From: Brevundimonas sp. UBA7664
Lineage (GTDB): Bacteria > Pseudomonadota > Alphaproteobacteria > Caulobacterales > Caulobacteraceae
DNA length: 64,000 bases
Assembly: GCF_002483305.1 (NCBI RefSeq)
Contig: NZ_DLHQ01000050.1
Span: forward strand, 18,711-82,710
Direction: 5' to 3'
Part shown: piece after piece, positions 46,119 through 60,413 of the stretch
Position numbering within the stretch: position 1 is the stretch's first letter
Layout of the letters: every line of letters begins with the position of its first letter
Notes under the pieces: generated by a model
Told to the model about the DNA's origin: nothing
Seen by the model: only the letters and a program-made list of their open reading frames with translations
Databases searched by the model: none
Translations under genes and position numbers: made by a program

Positions 46119-46153
46119 GCGGCTTTCGACTGGCCGGCGTTGACCTGTCAGCA
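46119..46153 (+). repeat. IS6-like right-end sequence (copy 1 of a direct repeat)
   Basis: GCGGCTTTCGACTGGCCGGCGTTGACCTGTCAGCA is 30/35 identical to 60376-60410, which follows an IS6 transposase remnant. Confidence 0.6.
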
Positions 46154-47098
46154 CCGTGCTGGATGTGTCGACAAGTGACCGGCCCGCCATGCTAGCCAAA
46201 GCGCCGCGGCACCCAATGTGGAGCAGATGGCGACCGCGGGTAGCGAGGCTTCTGGGCCGAACGCGCCGCCCGTAAGCCAATCGGGCAGACCGCTGCGGGC
46301 CGTGCTGCGAGACATCGCACTGCCGAAGTCGCCCCCTGATACCGCGGCGCCAAACAGGTAGCCTTGAGTGAAATTCCAGGCGGCATGAAAGCCGATCGAG
46401 ACCCAAAGCCGTCCAGTCAGTGCGTAGAATGCGGCCAGCATGATGCCGGCTTCAATCGCGACGCAGGCCGCTGTGAAGAGGGTCGCGCCAGGATTGCCGA
46501 TGTGTCCTGCCCCAAACAGCAGAGCCGAGACGATGAAGGCAGGCCAAGGGCCAAACCCCCGCCAGATCAGCCGCAGCAAGATCCCGCGAACCAGCACTTC
46601 CTCGAAGACCCCGGACTCAAGGGCCAGGCTGACGGCTCGCCAGGCCGGCGCCGGGCCCAGGAATTCGAAGTCATAGAGGCGAAAGCCGATCATGATCGCC
46701 ATGACCGCGGAAAAGGTCAGGGCCCCCAACAGCCCGCCCGCCAGCAGACCAAATGGCGCCGCCTTGAGAGCAAGCTCGCCGGGCGCCCGGTCTTCTCCGA
46801 GTCTCACCAAAAGGGCGTAGGCGCCCAGAATGATCAGACAGCCCAGAACATGGGCGACGAACTGGGTCGCCGGGTCGTCCGGCAAGACCTGCGAAAGGAA
46901 TTCCATGCTGGGCCCGAAGGCCAGGGCGACAGCCAGAATGAGCGCGAGCATCCAACCGACTGTCCGCGCCCAGAGGAACTTTCCGGGCCGCAAGACACGT
47001 CGGTTCCCCAGATCCACCGGGATGAACTGGTGGAGGATTCCTCGGCCTGTGACCGAGGGCGGTCGGCCGCTCATTCGCGAATTTTCATGGGCCATCAC
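46148..47098 (-). CDS. CPBP (CAAX protease/Abi) intramembrane glutamic endopeptidase
   Basis: VFEEVLVRG, LFGAGH, GFHAAWNF, LTGGAFGPEASL; multiple TM segments. Confidence 0.9.
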   Translation of the reverse strand: MMAHENSRMSGRPPSVTGRGILHQFIPVDLGNRRVLRPGKFLWARTVGWMLALILAVALAFGPSMEFLSQVLPDDPATQFVAHVLGCLIILGAYALLVRLGEDRAPGELALKAAPFGLLAGGLLGALTFSAVMAIMIGFRLYDFEFLGPAPAWRAVSLALESGVFEEVLVRGILLRLIWRGFGPWPAFIVSALLFGAGHIGNPGATLFTAACVAIEAGIMLAAFYALTGRLWVSIGFHAAWNFTQGYLFGAAVSGGDFGSAMSRSTARSGLPDWLTGGAFGPEASLPAVAICSTLGAAALWLAWRAGHLSTHPARC

Positions 47099-47422
47099 GG
47101 AAGCTCTCTTTGAGTAGGCCGAGGGTCGGAATGCGTTCCGTAGGGGAGAAGGCGTTTTCAGTTACCGCGTCTGCACATGCGGGGGTTTGGACGGACCCGG
47201 CCGAAGAGGCTTGAACGAAACGGCTATTCGCAGGCGTCGCTGCTTTTCAGTTTACACGGCGCTCACTCGCAACGAGCGGCGGGTCCCTGATGTCAGCCCT
47301 TCCGTTCAAGCCGCTCAAACAGGCGCCCCCCAAGCTCCCGACCTCACCGGCCGATGACGTGGAAAGCCTATGCCCATCAACCAAACCCACCTGCTCGCGT
47401 GCAGCCCAAATGGCGAAGCGTG

Positions 47423-47878
47423 ATGTGGTACGAACAATCCCCACGCGCCGAGGGGAGCTTCTGCAGAAGCCTGCGCGCACTAACCGCCGCGGTATTCGGC
47501 CTCACGTCGTCGGGTACTGCAGCGGCCGCCCGAGATCATGACCCCTCCCTGAGACGAACGAGCGACAGGGCCCTGTTCCAGATTCACATTTCCAGCGACT
47601 TCCTTCCCATCCCTATCCGGCGGATCCACACTTGGACGGTTCAGGTTTCCAATCAGGACGGACGCCCCGTTGAGGGCGCTTCGATCGAAATTGCCGGCGG
47701 GGGGCCGGTGCATCACCACGGACTGCCAACCCGGCCACGGGTTACGGCGACCGGCAGTCCCGGCGTCTACAAGATCACCGGGGTTCGTTTCCCGATGACC
47801 GGGCGGTGGATTTTGAACCTGGCCATCCATACTCTCGACGGTCGATCTGACACCGTGACCTTCAAAGTCATTCTCTGA
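47423..47878 (+). CDS. Exported YtkA/FixH-like Ig-fold protein
   Basis: IHTWTVQV...GRPVEGASIEIAGGGPVHHHGLPTRPRV...GVRFPMTGRW...DTVTFKVIL. Start uncertain. Confidence 0.7.
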   Translation: MWYEQSPRAEGSFCRSLRALTAAVFGLTSSGTAAAARDHDPSLRRTSDRALFQIHISSDFLPIPIRRIHTWTVQVSNQDGRPVEGASIEIAGGGPVHHHGLPTRPRVTATGSPGVYKITGVRFPMTGRWILNLAIHTLDGRSDTVTFKVIL

Positions 47879-48017: not shown

Positions 48018-48033
48018 GCCCTTGCGTTCAAGA
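48018..48033 (+). promoter_or_regulatory. 16-bp motif shared with 49779-49794 (inverted copy)
   Basis: GCCCTTGCGTTCAAGA, about 50 nt before ATG 48083; core CTTG-N4-CAAG. Confidence 0.45.
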
Positions 48034-48082: not shown

Positions 48083-48490
48083 ATGGAATTCGCAATCGGC
48101 GTGGGTTTGGCGCTTCTGGCGGGCCTGTTCCTGTCGTGGGTGGGGATGGACAGGGATCGGGCGGCATACCCCGTGATCCTTATCGTGATTGCCGTACTCT
48201 ACGAACTGTTCGCGGTGTTGGGCGGCTCAACCCCTGCATTGTTGTCAGAGCTCCTGCCGACGGCCGTCTTCGTCGGCGTGTCCGTCCTGGGCTTCCGCAC
48301 AAGCCTGTGGTGGGTGGTCGCCGGCCTCATCGGGCACGGCGTTTACGACATCTTCCACCCGGCAATCTTTACGAACCCGGGCGTGCCCACGTGGTGGCCG
48401 ATGTTCTGCATGGCCTACGACGTAGCGGCCGGCGTTTTCCTGGCCTGGCGGCTCACGCGCGGCCGCGGTCTCCAGGCCCAGTTTGCCTGA
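48083..48490 (+). CDS. Small integral membrane protein (DUF6010-like)
   Basis: Four hydrophobic segments; GHGVYDIFH and PTWWPMFCMAYDV; GGAG RBS. Confidence 0.75.
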   Translation: MEFAIGVGLALLAGLFLSWVGMDRDRAAYPVILIVIAVLYELFAVLGGSTPALLSELLPTAVFVGVSVLGFRTSLWWVVAGLIGHGVYDIFHPAIFTNPGVPTWWPMFCMAYDVAAGVFLAWRLTRGRGLQAQFA

Positions 48491-48577: not shown

Positions 48578-49345
48578 ATGGAGGTCTTGGCGCAAACGCG
48601 TGTTGTGCTGTGGGAAGGCGGCAGCCTTTGGCTGGTCGATGCTGCCCGCTTCGAGGGGGAAACCCGAAGCACCGATTTCCACGCCCACCACGCCATTCAG
48701 GTCACCCTCGGTCTTGGCGGTCAGTTCCGTCTGGTCGGTGACGACGGCGCCAGTGTAACGCGAGATGGGGTGGTGGCCGCGGATGCCCTTCATCGGTTTG
48801 AGGCGGAGGGGCGCTTCGCACTTCTTTTCGTTGAACCCGAGAGCCGGCTCGGTCGAGCGGTCGCGGCCCGCCACATCCAGGGGATGCTCACTGAGCTTGC
48901 ACCGTCGCCAATCCTTGCGGCCGAACTGGACGCATTCAAGACGTCCGACTGGCGAGCCCCGGATAGCGAGATTGTCGCATGGGGACGGAGGCTTGTCGGC
49001 GTGCTGGCGGCCGATGAGCGCGCCGAGATACCCGACTATCGGATCCGAAAGGTCATTGCGTGGGCAAGTGAACGGCTTGATCGGACGCTGAGCCTGGCTG
49101 ACGCCGTCCCGATCGCGGGCCTTTCGTCGAGCCGGCTACGGCACCTGTTCGTCGAGCAGACCGGCTTGCCGTTCAAGACCTACCTGCTGTGGTTGCGGCT
49201 CAGCCAAGCTGTCGCGGTCGTGGCGACGGGGTCACCGCTTACCGCGGCGGCGCATGAGGCCGGGTTCTCGGATTCAGCGCATCTCAGCCGTACTTTCAGG
49301 CGGATGTTCGGGGTCGCCCCCACTGCTCTGCGGATGCTGACCTGA
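48578..49345 (+). CDS. AraC family transcriptional regulator
   Basis: HAHHAIQ cupin; LSSSRLRHLF...YLLWLRL...AAAHEAGFSDSAHLSRTFRRMFG. Confidence 0.92.
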   Translation: MEVLAQTRVVLWEGGSLWLVDAARFEGETRSTDFHAHHAIQVTLGLGGQFRLVGDDGASVTRDGVVAADALHRFEAEGRFALLFVEPESRLGRAVAARHIQGMLTELAPSPILAAELDAFKTSDWRAPDSEIVAWGRRLVGVLAADERAEIPDYRIRKVIAWASERLDRTLSLADAVPIAGLSSSRLRHLFVEQTGLPFKTYLLWLRLSQAVAVVATGSPLTAAAHEAGFSDSAHLSRTFRRMFGVAPTALRMLT

Positions 49346-49520
49346 TCCTTCGATCAAGCGAAAACGCGGGGCGGGCGCCGGTGAGCAGCGCCAGGAAGTC
49401 TGGGGTTTCTCAGACGGCCAGGCCGCAGATTTGGATGCTGATGCGGCGCGAGCAGCCTGCTCCTGTGCCAGGCTTGGACGATCGACCGAGCGGGCTATTC
49501 CTCGAGCAGCGCCGTGCCCG

Positions 49521-49557
49521 AAACGTAAAGACGGGCCGACTGTGAGATCGGCCCGTC
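49521..49557 (-). terminator. Rho-independent terminator of the metallothionein-like gene
   Basis: 10-bp stem GACGGGCCGA/TCGGCCCGTC with an 8-nt loop, followed on the minus strand by TTTACGTTT; 12 nt after the stop. Confidence 0.75.
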
Positions 49558-49569
49558 ATTCGGCGCTCC

Positions 49570-49719
49570 TCAGTTGGAGGCGCAGTTCGTCTCAGTGGTG
49601 CAGCGGCAGTCGTCGCCGCACTGGCAGTCGGGACCGCAGGCGCAGTGGCCTTCGGTGGCGCAGGAGCCCTTGGCGGGCGCCAGATCGGCCTTGGGGGTGT
49701 TCTGATCGGCGTTGGGCAT
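49570..49719 (-). CDS. Metallothionein-like Cys-rich peptide (49 aa)
   Basis: MPNADQNTPKADLAPAKGSCATEGHCACGPDCQCGDDCRCTTETNCASN*, with 8 Cys + 1 His; GAGGAG RBS; downstream terminator. Below the ORF-track length cutoff. Confidence 0.8.
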   Translation of the reverse strand: MPNADQNTPKADLAPAKGSCATEGHCACGPDCQCGDDCRCTTETNCASN

Positions 49720-49778
49720 CGAAGTCTCCTCAGTTCTTGTTGTCGATGCTCAGGTTCTAACCTCGGACCCAGCCCGCT

Positions 49779-49794
49779 TCTTGAACGCAAGGGC
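49779..49794 (-). promoter_or_regulatory. 16-bp motif shared with 48018-48033
   Basis: Minus strand GCCCTTGCGTTCAAGA, about 60 nt before the metallothionein-like ATG. Confidence 0.45.
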
Positions 49795-49796
49795 TG

Positions 49797-50705
49797 TTAT
49801 CGAACAGGGGTCTTCGGGGGGTGTTTGCTGCTCGGAGCTTGGCGTCCGACAAGCGGGTCCGCCAGGCTCGACGGTCCCTTCGGAAAGCTCCTCGACAAGA
49901 CGGCCGCGAAGACCAGGACGGCAATCAGGCCCGGCAGACTGGCCTCAAGGCCGAAGGCGCCGCCGGTCAGCCAGTCCATGCCGGCGGCCTGGACCGGGAC
50001 CAGCAGGCTCGGCTCGGCCGCGCCGCTCACTCCGAATCCCAACAGAACGCCCTGGGTGACATTGGCCGTGAAGTGCAGGCCGATCGGCAGGGCGAGGCTC
50101 CGCGTCCGGACATAGGCCATGCCGAAAAGAACCGAAGCGGCGAAGATGTTGACGCCGGCCCAGATCTTCGTGGCCCCCTCCATCCCGGGATTGCCAAGGT
50201 GGGTCAGGACGAAGAAGGCGCCGATCACCAACTGCGCCGGCCACAGCCCGATCCCGTCGATGAGGCGCTGGAACAGAACGCCCCGGAACAGCAACTCTTC
50301 GGCCAGGGCAACGCCGGCCATGAGCAGGATGGCCGACCCCAACGCGGAAGGGTTCGGCGGCGCGATCTCCCACTGGACCCAGCCCCCCAGCGTCAGGAAC
50401 AGGGCCGGCGCCGCCATCAGCAGACCACCAAGGATGGCGCCCAATCCGAACTGGGTGAGCCAGCGGACGTCGGCGCGACCGGTCACCTCGGAGACGGGTC
50501 TTCGGCGCAGGGCCTGGATCGCCACAGTCGCGAGAATGATGATGAGCGCCTGCTCGTAGATCGTGATCTCGCGGCCGAGATGGGCGGAAAGGACGATCGT
50601 CGGGGCCAGCAGCGCGGCAAGAAGAACCATAAAGGCCGCGACCCACCAGCCGTTCCGAAGTCGGTGATCGCGGTCGACAAAAGCTGCAGCAAACCATTTT
50701 GGCAT
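49797..50705 (-). CDS. CPBP (CAAX protease/Abi) intramembrane glutamic endopeptidase
   Basis: LAEELLFRG, FVLTHLGN, GLHFTANV, LTGGAFGLEASL; ATG 50705 with GGAGA RBS. Confidence 0.9.
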   Translation of the reverse strand: MPKWFAAAFVDRDHRLRNGWWVAAFMVLLAALLAPTIVLSAHLGREITIYEQALIIILATVAIQALRRRPVSEVTGRADVRWLTQFGLGAILGGLLMAAPALFLTLGGWVQWEIAPPNPSALGSAILLMAGVALAEELLFRGVLFQRLIDGIGLWPAQLVIGAFFVLTHLGNPGMEGATKIWAGVNIFAASVLFGMAYVRTRSLALPIGLHFTANVTQGVLLGFGVSGAAEPSLLVPVQAAGMDWLTGGAFGLEASLPGLIAVLVFAAVLSRSFPKGPSSLADPLVGRQAPSSKHPPKTPVR

Positions 50706-50749
50706 GAGGGGTCTCCCTGGCCGTTGTGGGCGGCGATAGGCCGCAAGCT

Positions 50750-52201
50750 TTACCATGAGCGCGCCGTCAGGATCGCTCCGGCACCGCGATCACCGTCTCG
50801 GAAACGGGAGAGGCTGACCAATCCGGCGATGAGAGCGAGAGCGGCGCCGATCCCCAGTCCGAGGCGGGGAGCCGCTTCGCCGGGCGTCAGTGTGAACAGC
50901 AGCGTCATGAGAACCGCCCCGGCGGTCTGCCCGGTCAGCCGGGCCGCGCCCTGCAAGCCGCCAGAGGCGGCGCTCCGTTCGAGCGGAGCCGACAGGAACA
51001 TGTTGCGATTGTTCGGGGTCTGGAACAGGCCGAAACCCATGCCGCACGCTGCCGCGAAGAAGAGCATCGGCCGGACGTCCTGCGCCAGGGGCCACAACGC
51101 AGCCACCATCAGTCCCAGGGCGAGTAAGGCCCCGCCGGCCGCGCACAGCCAGGCCGTCGGGAACCGGTCCGCGAGCCGGCCTGAGGCGATCGCGGTCACG
51201 GCGACGCTGAGCGGCCAGACCGTCATGTAGAACCCCGTGGCGGAGGCGCTCTGACCAAGTCCATGCTGGAGGTAGAAGGGCAGCGCCACCATGGCGGCGG
51301 CCTGGCCTGAGAAGCAGAAGACCGAAGCGATCACGGAGAGGCGCAGCGACCGTCCACGCAGAAGGTCGAGCGGGATGAGCGGGGCCGCCTTCGGCATCTC
51401 CCTGCGGAGGAGCAAAACAAGGCACGCCAGACCGGCCGCGGCCACGGCGCCCGCCATGAACGGGCGCGACGGCGAAAGCTGCGCGCCGATGAAGAGGCCA
51501 CCGAACATTCCGCCGCTGAGACCCATGCTGATCAGGTCGAGGCGATGGGAGCCAGCCGGCGTTCGGGGCAGCTGCCGGCAGGCAAGAAGGACGGCGACGC
51601 CCAGGGGAATATTGAGCGCATAGAGCCAGGGCCATTGAGCGTGGGAGAGAATCAGCGCGCCCACCCCGGGACCGGCCGATGAGGCTAGGGCGACCGTCAG
51701 CGCATTCCAGCCGATGGCCGCGCCCAGCCGCTGGGGAGCCACCGAAAATCGCAGCAGCGGAACCCCGAGCGCCATGATGGCGGCGCCCCCCAGCCCTTGC
51801 AGGGCCCGGCCCGCGACCAGCCAGGCGAGCGTTGGCGCAATCGCGCAAAACCCTGAGGCGAGCATGAACAGCAGGGCCCCGAGGGTGAAGACCGGGCGGT
51901 AGCCGAACCGCTCCCCCAGGGCCGCGCACGGCAGCAGGGCGACCAGCAGGGCCGTCTGATAGGCGGTGACGACGAGCACCGCCAGGGCCGGAGTGGCGCC
52001 GAGGGCGTTGGCGATCGTCGGCAGCGCCAGGTTCGTCATCCCGGCGTCCAGCACCACCAGGGTCATCGCGGTCAGAACAGCGGCGATCGCGACGAGGCGT
52101 ACGGGCGTGGGTGGTCTGCGCTTGGGCGCCGCGCGCCGTTCAGAACACCGCACCCGCATCGACCCGGCGGGACCCGCCGGATCCGGGTCCAGCGGCATCA
52201 T
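50750..52201 (-). CDS. MFS transporter, DHA2-type (14 TM)
   Basis: VLDAGMTNLALPTIA, LGERFGYRPVF, GRALQGLGGA, FQTPNNR. Confidence 0.9.
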   Translation of the reverse strand: MMPLDPDPAGPAGSMRVRCSERRAAPKRRPPTPVRLVAIAAVLTAMTLVVLDAGMTNLALPTIANALGATPALAVLVVTAYQTALLVALLPCAALGERFGYRPVFTLGALLFMLASGFCAIAPTLAWLVAGRALQGLGGAAIMALGVPLLRFSVAPQRLGAAIGWNALTVALASSAGPGVGALILSHAQWPWLYALNIPLGVAVLLACRQLPRTPAGSHRLDLISMGLSGGMFGGLFIGAQLSPSRPFMAGAVAAAGLACLVLLLRREMPKAAPLIPLDLLRGRSLRLSVIASVFCFSGQAAAMVALPFYLQHGLGQSASATGFYMTVWPLSVAVTAIASGRLADRFPTAWLCAAGGALLALGLMVAALWPLAQDVRPMLFFAAACGMGFGLFQTPNNRNMFLSAPLERSAASGGLQGAARLTGQTAGAVLMTLLFTLTPGEAAPRLGLGIGAALALIAGLVSLSRFRDGDRGAGAILTARSW

Positions 52202-52749
52202 GCGCGCGCCGGGCCCGGGACCCAGAACCCCTTGTCTTCCACGTAGCGGGTCAGGCGATGATGCTGCCGATCCTCCACCCGCAAGTCGCGTTCCGTAAAG
52301 CGGAACAGCAGGGCGGTATCGCTGACGCACCGGGTGTCGTGAATGTCCCCGGGCAAATAGAGCTGGGCTTCCCCGGCCCGAACCAGCGTGCTGTTCCGCT
52401 TGACCAGCCGGACCGCGCCGTCCTCGTCCTCGATCCGGGCGTAGGCGCCCATCTCGATCTCGCCTTGCTGGATGCCGTAGAGGACCCAGCTCCGGCCATG
52501 GTCGTGCGGCGGCCGATAGAGCCCGGCCTGTTCGGTGTGGGCGAGAAGCACAAATCCATGGTCCGGGTCGCGATAGAGCTCCTCGTTGGCAGGGGCATCC
52601 CTGTGCAGCGCGCCGAGCCAAGCCTCGCCGGAGGGTGCGCTGAGCAGCGTCTCCATCCGCCTCTGACAGGCTTGACCCAGCTCACTGGTCAGCGGCCCCC
52701 ACTGGGACCGGACACCTTCGATAAATGCCTGCAGTGCTGTCTTGCCCAT
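52198..52749 (-). CDS. Cupin / cysteine dioxygenase-like protein
   Basis: PPHDHGRSWVLYG...GDIHDTR (HxH...H metal triad); ATGA overlap with the MFS gene. Confidence 0.7.
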   Translation of the reverse strand: MGKTALQAFIEGVRSQWGPLTSELGQACQRRMETLLSAPSGEAWLGALHRDAPANEELYRDPDHGFVLLAHTEQAGLYRPPHDHGRSWVLYGIQQGEIEMGAYARIEDEDGAVRLVKRNSTLVRAGEAQLYLPGDIHDTRCVSDTALLFRFTERDLRVEDRQHHRLTRYVEDKGFWVPGPARA

Positions 52750-52876
52750 GATCGTACCTCCGTTCGGGAGCATGGGCCGGAGGGTACGGTCTCGCGGTTA
52801 TTGCGGAAGACGCAGCAGTTGCAGTTTATTAGTGCGTCAGACGCCACAATAGGCGCCGGCCGCCCGGGACTGAGCC

Positions 52877-60072: not shown

Positions 60073-60413
60073 TTCGGCGGAACCCTCAAACGCCTCGGAT
60101 GGCTCTCGCAATCCCGCAAAAATCAGTGACATCAAGCGGCGGTGGCGGCGCTGTGAGGCAAATGCTGAAAGGTCTCCGGCAAATTCGGCGCAAGCCGCTG
60201 TCGGGGATGATCAAATCCCACCCCTTAGTCCGAAGATTTCTCACCACCCACGCGGCGATCTACAACACCTTCAACATCCAACGTCACCTGATCAGCAGAC
60301 CCCCTCTTCGCCGTTTCCGCGCCGAAGCTGCCGCGGCCTGGGCGAAGGCCGTTGCCTGATTTCAGACGGGGTAGGGCGGCGTTCGACTCGGCGGAGTTAA
60401 CCTGTCAGCAGCC
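60073..60413 (+). mobile_element. IS6-family transposase remnant with right end
   Basis: RRFLTTHAAIYNTFNIQRHLISRPPLRRFRAEAAAAW matches IS6 transposase C-termini. The upstream part is frameshifted or degenerate. It is followed by GTTAACCTGTCAGCAGCC, an IR-like end. Confidence 0.75.

Follow-up and report, generated by a model that had tools for sequence, protein, structure and literature searches.

We propose that a 49-codon gene in the window (the whole 64,000-nucleotide stretch of Brevundimonas sp. UBA7664 DNA that was analyzed) encodes a cytoplasmic metallothionein-like peptide that would be one output of an accessory metal-defense regulon, a reading to which we assign a probability of roughly 0.65 from sequence and genomic context. 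A metal-defense regulon with thiol-based sequestration as its cytoplasmic arm is the most economical reading because one regulator-box pair drives peptides that are not homologous and that share only their CxC type of Cys richness, and because its further targets include copper-type periplasmic proteins and a phytochelatin-synthase homolog. The preliminary description of this DNA had drawn attention to the peptide and did not mention the AraC regulon, which we judge to be the more novel part.

The product of the gene, MPNADQNTPKADLAPAKGSCATEGHCACGPDCQCGDDCRCTTETNCASN (49 aa, ∼5 kDa), consists of a variable polar N-terminal tail (residues 1 to 19) followed by an eight-Cys core, C-x5-CxCGPxCxCGDxCxC-x5-C, with the cysteines placed as C20-x5-C26-x-C28-x3-C32-x-C34-x3-C38-x-C40-x5-C46. 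Cys accounts for 8 of the 49 residues (16%) and for 30% of the 27-aa core, the core contains three CxC motifs, and F, W, and Y are all absent from the peptide. The CxC repeats had been recognized correctly in the preliminary description, but the C-x5-H spacing given there is off by one, since the actual arrangement is C20-x4-H25-C26, that is, C-x5-C, and His25, which it had counted as part of the motif, varies across the family alignment. The signals and codon usage that it had listed (RBS, ATG, stop, intrinsic terminator, and host-like codons) were all confirmed: the GAGGAG sequence lies 6 nt from the ATG and is kept at 6 orthologous loci, an 11-pair hairpin is followed by a T tail, and GC3 is 0.88 (Table 1). 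The hairpin starts 12 nt past the stop codon, is the sole terminator-like site within 700 nt, and recurs at the equivalent position in the orthologs. In the window, the gene is monocistronic with its own terminator, and it is convergent with a gene for an AraC-family regulator.

Table 1. Features of the locus, with positions counted from the first nucleotide of the window
Feature	Position	Strand	Remarks
IS6-like end, left	46119-46153		30 of 35 positions identical to the right end
CPBP (Rce1-like) intramembrane protease, copy 1	46148..47098	minus	PF02517
Regulon box CCGTTTCGTTCAAG	47210..47223	minus	ahead of CPBP copy 1, divergent from the box of the YtkA-like gene
Regulon box CCCTTCCGTTCAAG	47297..47310	plus	upstream of the YtkA-like gene
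YtkA-like protein	47354..47878	plus	PF13115, E 1e-11
Regulon box CCCTTGCGTTCAAG	48019..48032	plus	50 nt upstream of the membrane-protein/AraC operon
Membrane protein, 135 aa, ∼4 TM	48083..48490	plus	first gene of the operon with AraC
AraC-family regulator	48578..49345	plus	N-terminal cupin + HTH_18
Intrinsic terminator of the peptide gene	49520..49557	minus	11-bp G+C-rich stem (49557-49530) + T tract
Cys-rich peptide gene	49570..49719	minus	ATG, 49 codons, TGA
RBS GAGGAG	49726..49731	minus	6 nt 5' of the peptide ATG
-10-like TAGAAC	49754..49759	minus	downstream of the peptide-gene box
Regulon box CCCTTGCGTTCAAG	49780..49793	minus	60 nt upstream of the peptide ATG
IS6-like end, right	60376-60410		30 of 35 positions identical to the left end

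A homolog search, which the preliminary description had suggested, yielded about 30 relatives of the peptide, mostly in Caulobacterales. We ran phmmer over 1.84 billion cluster representatives and covered 5.8 billion proteins by two word-indexed searches; homologs were found with E values of 1e-24 to 1e-11 in these searches of 1.8 to 5.8 billion proteins, in about 13 to 22 clusters, all members of which are unnamed or "hypothetical" (two relatives carry the label "hypothetical protein" at NCBI). From the 1.84 billion nameless representatives, phmmer returned only members of the peptide family and two low-complexity long proteins. Further loci, belonging to Brevundimonas, Caulobacter, other Caulobacteraceae, Hyphomonadaceae, and Parvularculaceae, came from a scan of species genomes with a back-translated pattern, and a search with the peptide only of 36 genomes of the same genus found nothing. 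In the alignment of 30 sequences, whose members are 44 to 52 aa long and contain 8 or 9 Cys, the CxCGPxCxCGDxCxC block is invariant, including the six core Cys, and its Gly, Pro, and Asp are also fixed. Aromatic residues number 0 to 2 per member and are confined to the N-terminal tail in the members that were inspected.

Among six Brevundimonas and other Caulobacteraceae orthologs, the Cys core shows a dN/dS of ∼0.1 to 0.5 (median, ∼0.25), whereas the 19-residue N-terminal tail evolves at a dN/dS of ∼1, yet remains in frame and polar in composition; indels between the orthologs occur in multiples of three only. These values bear on the reading that the ORF has no function as a peptide, being either a chance frame in G+C-rich DNA or a leader peptide that senses cysteine. 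Several frames are indeed open over the same 150 nt in all orthologs, and the ORF lies just ahead of the membrane-protein gene in distant lineages, but selection acts on the core at the level of amino acids, with Gly, Pro, and Asp fixed besides Cys, and the ORF is equipped with an RBS, a promoter box, and a terminator of its own, so that we regard a nonfunctional ORF as very improbable. The leader peptide or attenuator was rejected on two grounds, the terminator belonging to the gene itself and the position of the gene in Brevundimonas, where it is convergent with the other genes and not upstream of them. Antisense and alternative frames were also set aside, as neither the substitution pattern nor the direction in which the RBS, box, and terminator point supports them. 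Judged from its homologs, from purifying selection on the Cys core, and from the conservation of the RBS, box, and terminator, the 49-codon ORF is a real gene, as the preliminary description had claimed.

Modest evidence for a short and relatively abundant transcript comes from RNA-derived contigs that cover the coding sequence and terminator of an ortholog that shares ∼91% identity with the one in B. denitrificans, while the 1.5 kb beside it, containing the genes for the regulator and the membrane protein, has almost no coverage. The contigs, from four metatranscriptome libraries of three studies (activated sludge, wastewater, and soil), are of low depth, metatranscriptomes may contain DNA, and runs X30 to X32, in which coverage was too fragmentary to interpret, were excluded.

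At the level of its sequence, the peptide has the features by which metallothioneins are recognized, namely, a mass below 10 kDa, Cys-rich CxC motifs, few aromatic residues, and no predicted fold. None of the six orthologs has a hydrophobic stretch in its N-terminal tail, so that a signal peptide is lacking and the peptide should be cytoplasmic. AlphaFold2, run with the 30-sequence alignment, gave a low-confidence coil (pLDDT 57) devoid of secondary structure; this outcome is the one expected of an apo-metallothionein and not of a disulfide-knotted fold. Scans of the peptide against Pfam and NCBIfam gave no family, with no metallothionein family of Pfam, PF02069 included, matched at an E value of ≤10, and a search of the PDB with the profile of the peptide family gave none either. 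Taken with the regulon context described below, these class-level features and the lack of a match to a known family support the earlier view of an alphaproteobacterial metallothionein-like peptide.

The promoter of the peptide gene carries a 14-nt box, CCsTTkCGTTCAAG (longer form, AGCCsTTkCGTTCAAG), of which CGTTCAAG is a stretch. The pattern CCNNTNCGTTCAAG has 4 matches in the 2.9-Mb genome, against 1 for the reversed control, and all four are found in this locus, spanning 2.6 kb. The box of the peptide gene is conserved at loci L002 to L006 and that of the membrane-protein/AraC operon at L002 to L005; in another Brevundimonas (L005), homologs of the YtkA-like and CPBP copy 1 genes lie kilobases away from the peptide gene, each with its own box. 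A -10-like hexamer of the form TAnAnn follows ∼20 nt past the box, and no good -35 is present near the box promoters; from these two observations we infer that the box overlaps the -35 region and serves an activator, the AraC-family regulator, which would bind there. The regulon defined by this box, shared over four promoters, is real, judged from the restriction of the box to this locus and from its conservation ahead of the same genes in other Brevundimonas, and the copy ahead of the membrane-protein/AraC operon would give autoregulation. Matches of the type CCGGTCCGTTCAAG were discarded as noise, for they lie inside genes of ABC substrate-binding proteins, where they encode a GPFK motif.

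The regulator combines an N-terminal cupin domain with an AraC-type double helix-turn-helix (PF12833, E 2.5e-19; PF00165, E 3e-8), the latter matching the DNA-binding domains of AraC, MarA, Rob, and SoxS in the PDB. Its AlphaFold2 model (pLDDT 92) has an N-domain that is β-rich over residues 5 to 85, and Foldseek aligned the full-length model with ToxT, Rns, and CsvR (E 1e-10) and the N-domain with metal and small cupins, such as oxalate decarboxylase (OxdC) and HEPD. In 17 homologs of 44 to 100% identity, the residues H35-x-H37-H38-x2-Q41, D69, H72, and E86-P-E88 are invariant, and more distant members of the subfamily retain HxH...Q. The set HxH-x3-(E/Q)...H is the canonical metal-ligand set of cupins, and we propose on these grounds that the sensor domain would bind a metal. 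ToxT, Rns, and CsvR share the two-domain plan, with an N-terminal cupin ligand domain and a double HTH, but they bind fatty acids and, to our knowledge, are without a metal site, whereas the subfamily of the window regulator keeps the HxH-x3-Q...H ligands. The protein would probably be both the sensor and the activator of the regulon.

We surveyed the neighborhood by tblastn of the neighbors in the window against related loci and by all-against-all clustering of ORFs, and only two neighbors proved to be conserved: the AraC regulator, at 14 of 17 loci, and the 135-aa membrane protein, at 12 of 17. In Brevundimonas, the membrane gene precedes araC and the two converge with the peptide gene; in Caulobacter, Phenylobacterium, Hyphomonadaceae, and Parvularculaceae, the regulator, peptide, and membrane-protein genes follow each other in that order on a single strand. 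The membrane protein itself matches no Pfam family; it has 110 homologs, a few of them with PF19473 (DUF6010), so that it is distantly DUF6010-like, and it is fused to DUF3703 in three lineages (L009, L013, and L014). The YtkA-like protein is predicted to be periplasmic or membrane anchored and carries the motif GGGPVHHHGLPT. In Bacillus subtilis, the YtkA domain (CtaK and the C terminus of YcnJ) is involved in copper trafficking (PMC13344008).

On the same strand as the peptide gene lies an MFS-CPBP pair that ends 77 nt upstream of it and that might look like the export and immunity part of a system in which the peptide is secreted or modified, as a RiPP or a bacteriocin-like product, all the more so as a second CPBP protein belongs to the regulon and CPBP proteins are known as bacteriocin-immunity factors. 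We give this reading hardly any weight. A modifying enzyme is conserved near none of the at least 17 loci, the MFS and CPBP2 genes are missing from most of them, the N-terminal "leader" is neutral (dN/dS ∼1) and lacks any signal or recognition motif, and the conserved partners are the regulator and metal-type proteins. The upstream MFS-CPBP2 pair was dropped as a functional partner, whether in RiPP maturation, immunity, or export, on account of the same absence from most related loci.

The regulator subfamily is rare, being found in 3 of 400 sampled alphaproteobacterial species and in 3 of 200 other Brevundimonas species, and 400 Pseudomonadota contained 4 more full-length members; the carriers span the Alpha- and Betaproteobacteria. 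Orthologs of the window peptide are present in the three other Brevundimonas carriers. In five carriers outside the genus, namely, genomes G216, G419, G293, and G850 and plasmid pMTS1 of Cupriavidus sp. P-10, the box precedes a Cys-rich ORF of 54 to 66 aa with 13 to 16 Cys that has no sequence relation to the window peptide, and genome G896 has a box with one mismatch and a similar Cys-rich ORF of uncertain start codon. Across 7 unrelated peptide genes, the distance from the box to the ATG is 59 to 61 nt. Other genes are found under the box as well. YtkA-like homologs are driven by it in five lineages (L005, L055, L057, L063, and L066), the box-driven ones in relatives sharing a GGMPxHxHGLPT motif. 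DUF3703 occurs there in relatives as a separate protein or as a fusion with the membrane protein or YtkA, and Polaromonas and Sinorhizobium add a cytochrome c peroxidase and a DUF4386 membrane protein, respectively.

A further set is that of Brevundimonas G462, where six boxes occur within 5 kb. They precede an operon of DUF3703, a phytochelatin synthase homolog (PF05023, E 1.9e-85), and CPBP1; a gene for an alpha/beta hydrolase; the operon of the membrane protein and AraC; an operon of the peptide and a DUF3995-like protein; and a gene for a GNAT acetyltransferase, while no gene was recognized behind the sixth box. Bacterial phytochelatin-synthase homologs mostly hydrolyze glutathione instead of making phytochelatins, which speaks against the metal reading. 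Phytochelatins themselves detoxify Cd, As(III), Hg, Zn, Pb, and Cu (PMC9917255). Behind the AraC-box-peptide unit of Cupriavidus come genes for a CzcI-like small protein, an outer-membrane factor, a CzcB-like adaptor, and an RND pump whose best family is CusA/CzcA, this adjacency to czc being a single case.

The frequent company of the membrane protein invites a variant of the metallothionein reading, in which the peptide would be a metal chaperone that passes its metal to this co-regulated protein, which is often accompanied by DUF3703, for export or insertion. It would account for the presence of the two at 12 of 17 loci and for the operon that they form in distant lineages, where the membrane-protein gene comes immediately after the peptide gene, and the conserved polar residues of the membrane protein (E56, H85, D89, H92, C109, and D113) would suit such a partner. 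However, G293, G419, and Cupriavidus have the regulator and unrelated Cys-rich peptides without the membrane protein, and Polaromonas has the membrane protein without any peptide. Such free exchange of nonhomologous peptides argues against a specific docking partner, and we hold the chaperone role to be improbable.

The nature of the stress is the point at which another reading departs from metal defense: the system may provide thiol defense against soft electrophiles or oxidants, with the peptide as a sacrificial thiol or redox buffer and with the phytochelatin-synthase homolog, GNAT, and hydrolases processing glutathione conjugates. The box-driven phytochelatin-synthase homolog, GNAT, alpha/beta hydrolase, and cytochrome c peroxidase of the relatives speak for it, as do the glyoxalase and the DJ-1/PfpI protein near the Phenylobacterium unit, and eukaryotic metallothioneins, too, scavenge oxidants. 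Yet YtkA-type copper-trafficking domains recur in the regulon, a czc-like cluster adjoins the unit in Cupriavidus, and the canonical cupin metal site is retained in the sensor domain. Moreover, the fixed geometry of CxCGPxCxCGDxCxC suits a defined metal cluster and would be needless for a bulk thiol buffer, so that a role in electrophile or oxidant defense appears unlikely to us, although it is the main rival of our reading.

Returning to the metallothionein-like peptide and its metal-defense regulon, the rarity in the genus, the carriage on plasmids, and the IS6-like ends of a segment indicate that the module is accessory and horizontally transferred. A Cupriavidus megaplasmid carries the regulator, box, and Cys-rich peptide, and plasmids of Polaromonas and Sinorhizobium carry versions of the regulon without the peptide. 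In the window, the locus occupies the left end of the IS6-bounded segment.

Our working model is that the AraC-type regulator would sense stress through its cupin domain, probably by binding a metal directly, and would then bind the 14- to 17-nt box overlapping the -35 of the four promoters of the locus. This would switch on the peptide gene, the operon of the His/Asp/Cys-bearing 4-TM protein and of the regulator itself (a positive feedback), the YtkA-like periplasmic protein, which would handle metal, and the CPBP protease. The eight Cys thiolates of the peptide would wrap a metal-thiolate cluster and thereby sequester a metal of soft or borderline character, be it Cu(I), Cd(II), or Zn(II). 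In this scheme, the binding of AraC to the box, the metal as a signal, and the binding of metal by the peptide are all probable features deduced from sequence.

The pointers to the metal differ from one component to another. YtkA points to copper, the His3-Gln site of the sensor to a borderline divalent metal, and the Cys-only cluster of the peptide to Cu(I), Cd, or Zn, so that a copper specificity of the peptide would be a guess. A sensor site made of His and Gln, without Cys, is better suited to Zn, Ni, Co, or Cu(II) than to Cu(I), Cd, or Hg, and the chemistries of the sensor and of the peptide are therefore not obviously matched. Of note, the alpha/beta hydrolase, GNAT, CPBP protease, and cytochrome c peroxidase of the regulon are not metal proteins and would also agree with an electrophile or oxidant defense.

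Beyond the peptide, we put forward tentatively, at slightly less than even odds, that the cupin-AraC proteins with an HxH-x3-Q...H site might constitute an unrecognized class of one-component metal sensors in Proteobacteria, which would run, by way of one short box, a modular, horizontally traded metal-defense kit of thiol and envelope functions. The interchangeable parts of this kit would be unrelated metallothionein-like peptides that look as if they had arisen de novo, phytochelatin-synthase homologs, and YtkA-like, DUF3703, and DUF6010 proteins. Bacterial metallothioneins would then be far more common and more diverse than the two families of the literature.

Among known systems, the MymT/RicR regulon of Mycobacterium tuberculosis, in which MymT is a Cu(I) metallothionein, offers a close likeness of organization: a cytoplasmic Cys-rich peptide of ∼50 aa that gene callers easily miss and a small stress regulon with one common operator and envelope proteins alongside. 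MymT nevertheless has no apparent sequence relationship to the window peptide, it is under a CsoR-type repressor whereas the window peptide would be under a cupin-AraC activator, and its regulon partners are MmcO, LpqS, and SocAB in place of the YtkA-like, DUF6010, DUF3703, and CPBP proteins and the phytochelatin-synthase homolog found here. SmtA, BmtA, and PmtA (PF02069; PDB 1JJD) are likewise small, Cys-rich, metal-sequestering proteins with a dedicated metal-responsive regulator, but that regulator is of the ArsR/SmtB or MerR/CadR type and not an AraC protein, and the window peptide stands outside their family, PF02069 being unmatched even at an E value of 10. The ligands of BmtA are Cys9His2, arranged about a zinc-finger-like fold that has aromatic residues, whereas the window peptide has 8 Cys, no conserved His, and no aromatic residue.

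In the spacing of its cysteines, the peptide comes closer to eukaryotic proteins, namely, the Cu-thioneins of the Neurospora crassa type, with about 25 aa and 7 Cys, and the type 1 and type 2 metallothioneins of plants, with their CxCGxxCxC blocks. The likeness lies in the CxC-x3-CxC-x3-CxC style, the richness in Gly and Asp, the single small domain, and the 7 to 9 Cys, but there is no detectable homology to these fungal and plant proteins, and the family of the window has, in addition, a polar tail of ∼19 variable residues and two outlying Cys set off by a constant x5.

A 2025 review recognizes two lineages only of bacterial metallothioneins, BmtA/SmtA/PmtA and MymT (PMC12193353). If our reading is right, the peptide family would be a third one, apparently unrelated in sequence to either. 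The regulatory logic, an AraC protein with a cupin metal site acting via a 14-nt box, would also be new for metallothioneins; a literature search found no AraC control of metallothionein or phytochelatin-synthase genes, and it returned nothing relevant on the peptide family, DUF3703, or DUF6010. The regulon would thus provide a testable functional context for DUF3703, DUF6010-like, and alphaproteobacterial YtkA-like proteins, the first for both DUFs if the broader reading of a cupin-AraC sensor class holds. Once its inducer has been identified, the pair of promoter and regulator could become a compact part for biosensors. The case of this gene further suggests that cutoffs on short ORFs conceal metal-resistance genes, a point of relevance to metagenomes of polluted or engineered water systems. 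The organism and its relatives are found in such systems.

The regulon of the cupin-AraC regulator appears to reach other genes of metal chemistry. In another Brevundimonas genome (G462), the 14-nt promoter box that we take as the AraC site precedes an operon that encodes, in order, DUF3703, a phytochelatin synthase homolog (PF05023 match, E 1.9e-85) and a CPBP protease, and at this locus, L084, additional boxes stand upstream of a gene for an alpha/beta hydrolase and of one for a GNAT acetyltransferase. Control of a bacterial phytochelatin synthase homolog by an AraC-type box seems not to have been described. On the Cupriavidus plasmid pMTS1, the regulator and box are followed by a gene for a 63-aa peptide with 16 Cys, immediately 3' of which lie a gene for a small, His-rich protein resembling CzcI and an OMF/MFP/CzcA-like RND cluster, and all of these features are without annotation in the plasmid record.

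Coordinates of the features discussed here
Feature	Locus	Position	Remark
Direct repeats	window	46119-46153; 60376-60410	IS6-like ends; 30/35 identical
Second CPBP protease	window	49797-50756	(-)
MFS transporter	window	50750-52621	(-)
191-aa protein	window	52198-52773	(-); cupin-like PHDHG and HDTRC motifs
AraC, box, 63-aa peptide, CzcI-like/RND cluster	L056, Cupriavidus sp. P-10 plasmid pMTS1	4953-10710	
DUF3703, phytochelatin synthase homolog, CPBP protease	L084, G462 contig 29	4399-6764	box-preceded
Small DUF3995-like membrane protein	L005	8255-8578	
	L015/L016	8161-8609	
	L084	10576-11019	
Cys-core relatives	L007	189-293	Polyangiaceae MAG
	L008	1325-1531	Polyangiaceae MAG
55-aa ORF, 17 Cys	L017	582-746	uncultured alphaproteobacterium, 47% G+C

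The gene for a DUF3995-like protein (GAWKYRAMIT...YVDICHRAALMYAF), found 3' of the peptide gene at several loci from Brevundimonas and Caulobacter and absent from the window, may be an additional optional member of the regulon. The 191-aa protein, which matched no family in Pfam or NCBIfam, the MFS transporter and the second CPBP protease form one same-strand block in the window, and a Hyphomonadaceae MAG (L014) has this block too, beside its AraC-peptide unit, with identities of 61%, 48% and 47%, respectively; no box was found upstream of the block.

Beyond the main pattern, the two Polyangiaceae relatives of the Cys core carry CKCGPDCKCGDGCKC and then a His-rich end. Each is fused at its N terminus to a hydrophobic segment, a signal or an anchor, which points to a metallothionein-like protein that is secreted or tethered to the membrane; neither locus has an AraC gene close by. 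The 55-aa ORF, which carries MSKCNNPNCKCEDCQCGDNCQCGKECHCGPNCTCGDDCHC... and shares the CGPNCxCGDDC block, is by its sequence a predicted longer, repeat-type metallothionein-like peptide. L013, a contig of 63% G+C binned with a Flavobacteriaceae MAG, has AraC, peptide and membrane protein-DUF3703 genes nearly identical to their counterparts at loci from Hyphomonadaceae and Parvularculaceae; the contig is probably alphaproteobacterial and misbinned, and is therefore unfit as proof of the family in Bacteroidota. Two metagenome gene calls for members of the family, P0005 and P0016, are over-extended 5' across the promoter region to 169 aa and 83 aa, and their conserved RBS and ATG show the true product to be the C-terminal ~50 aa.

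In the window, the regulon occupies the left end of a 14-kb segment between the direct repeats, the first of which overlaps the stop codon of the first CPBP protease gene.
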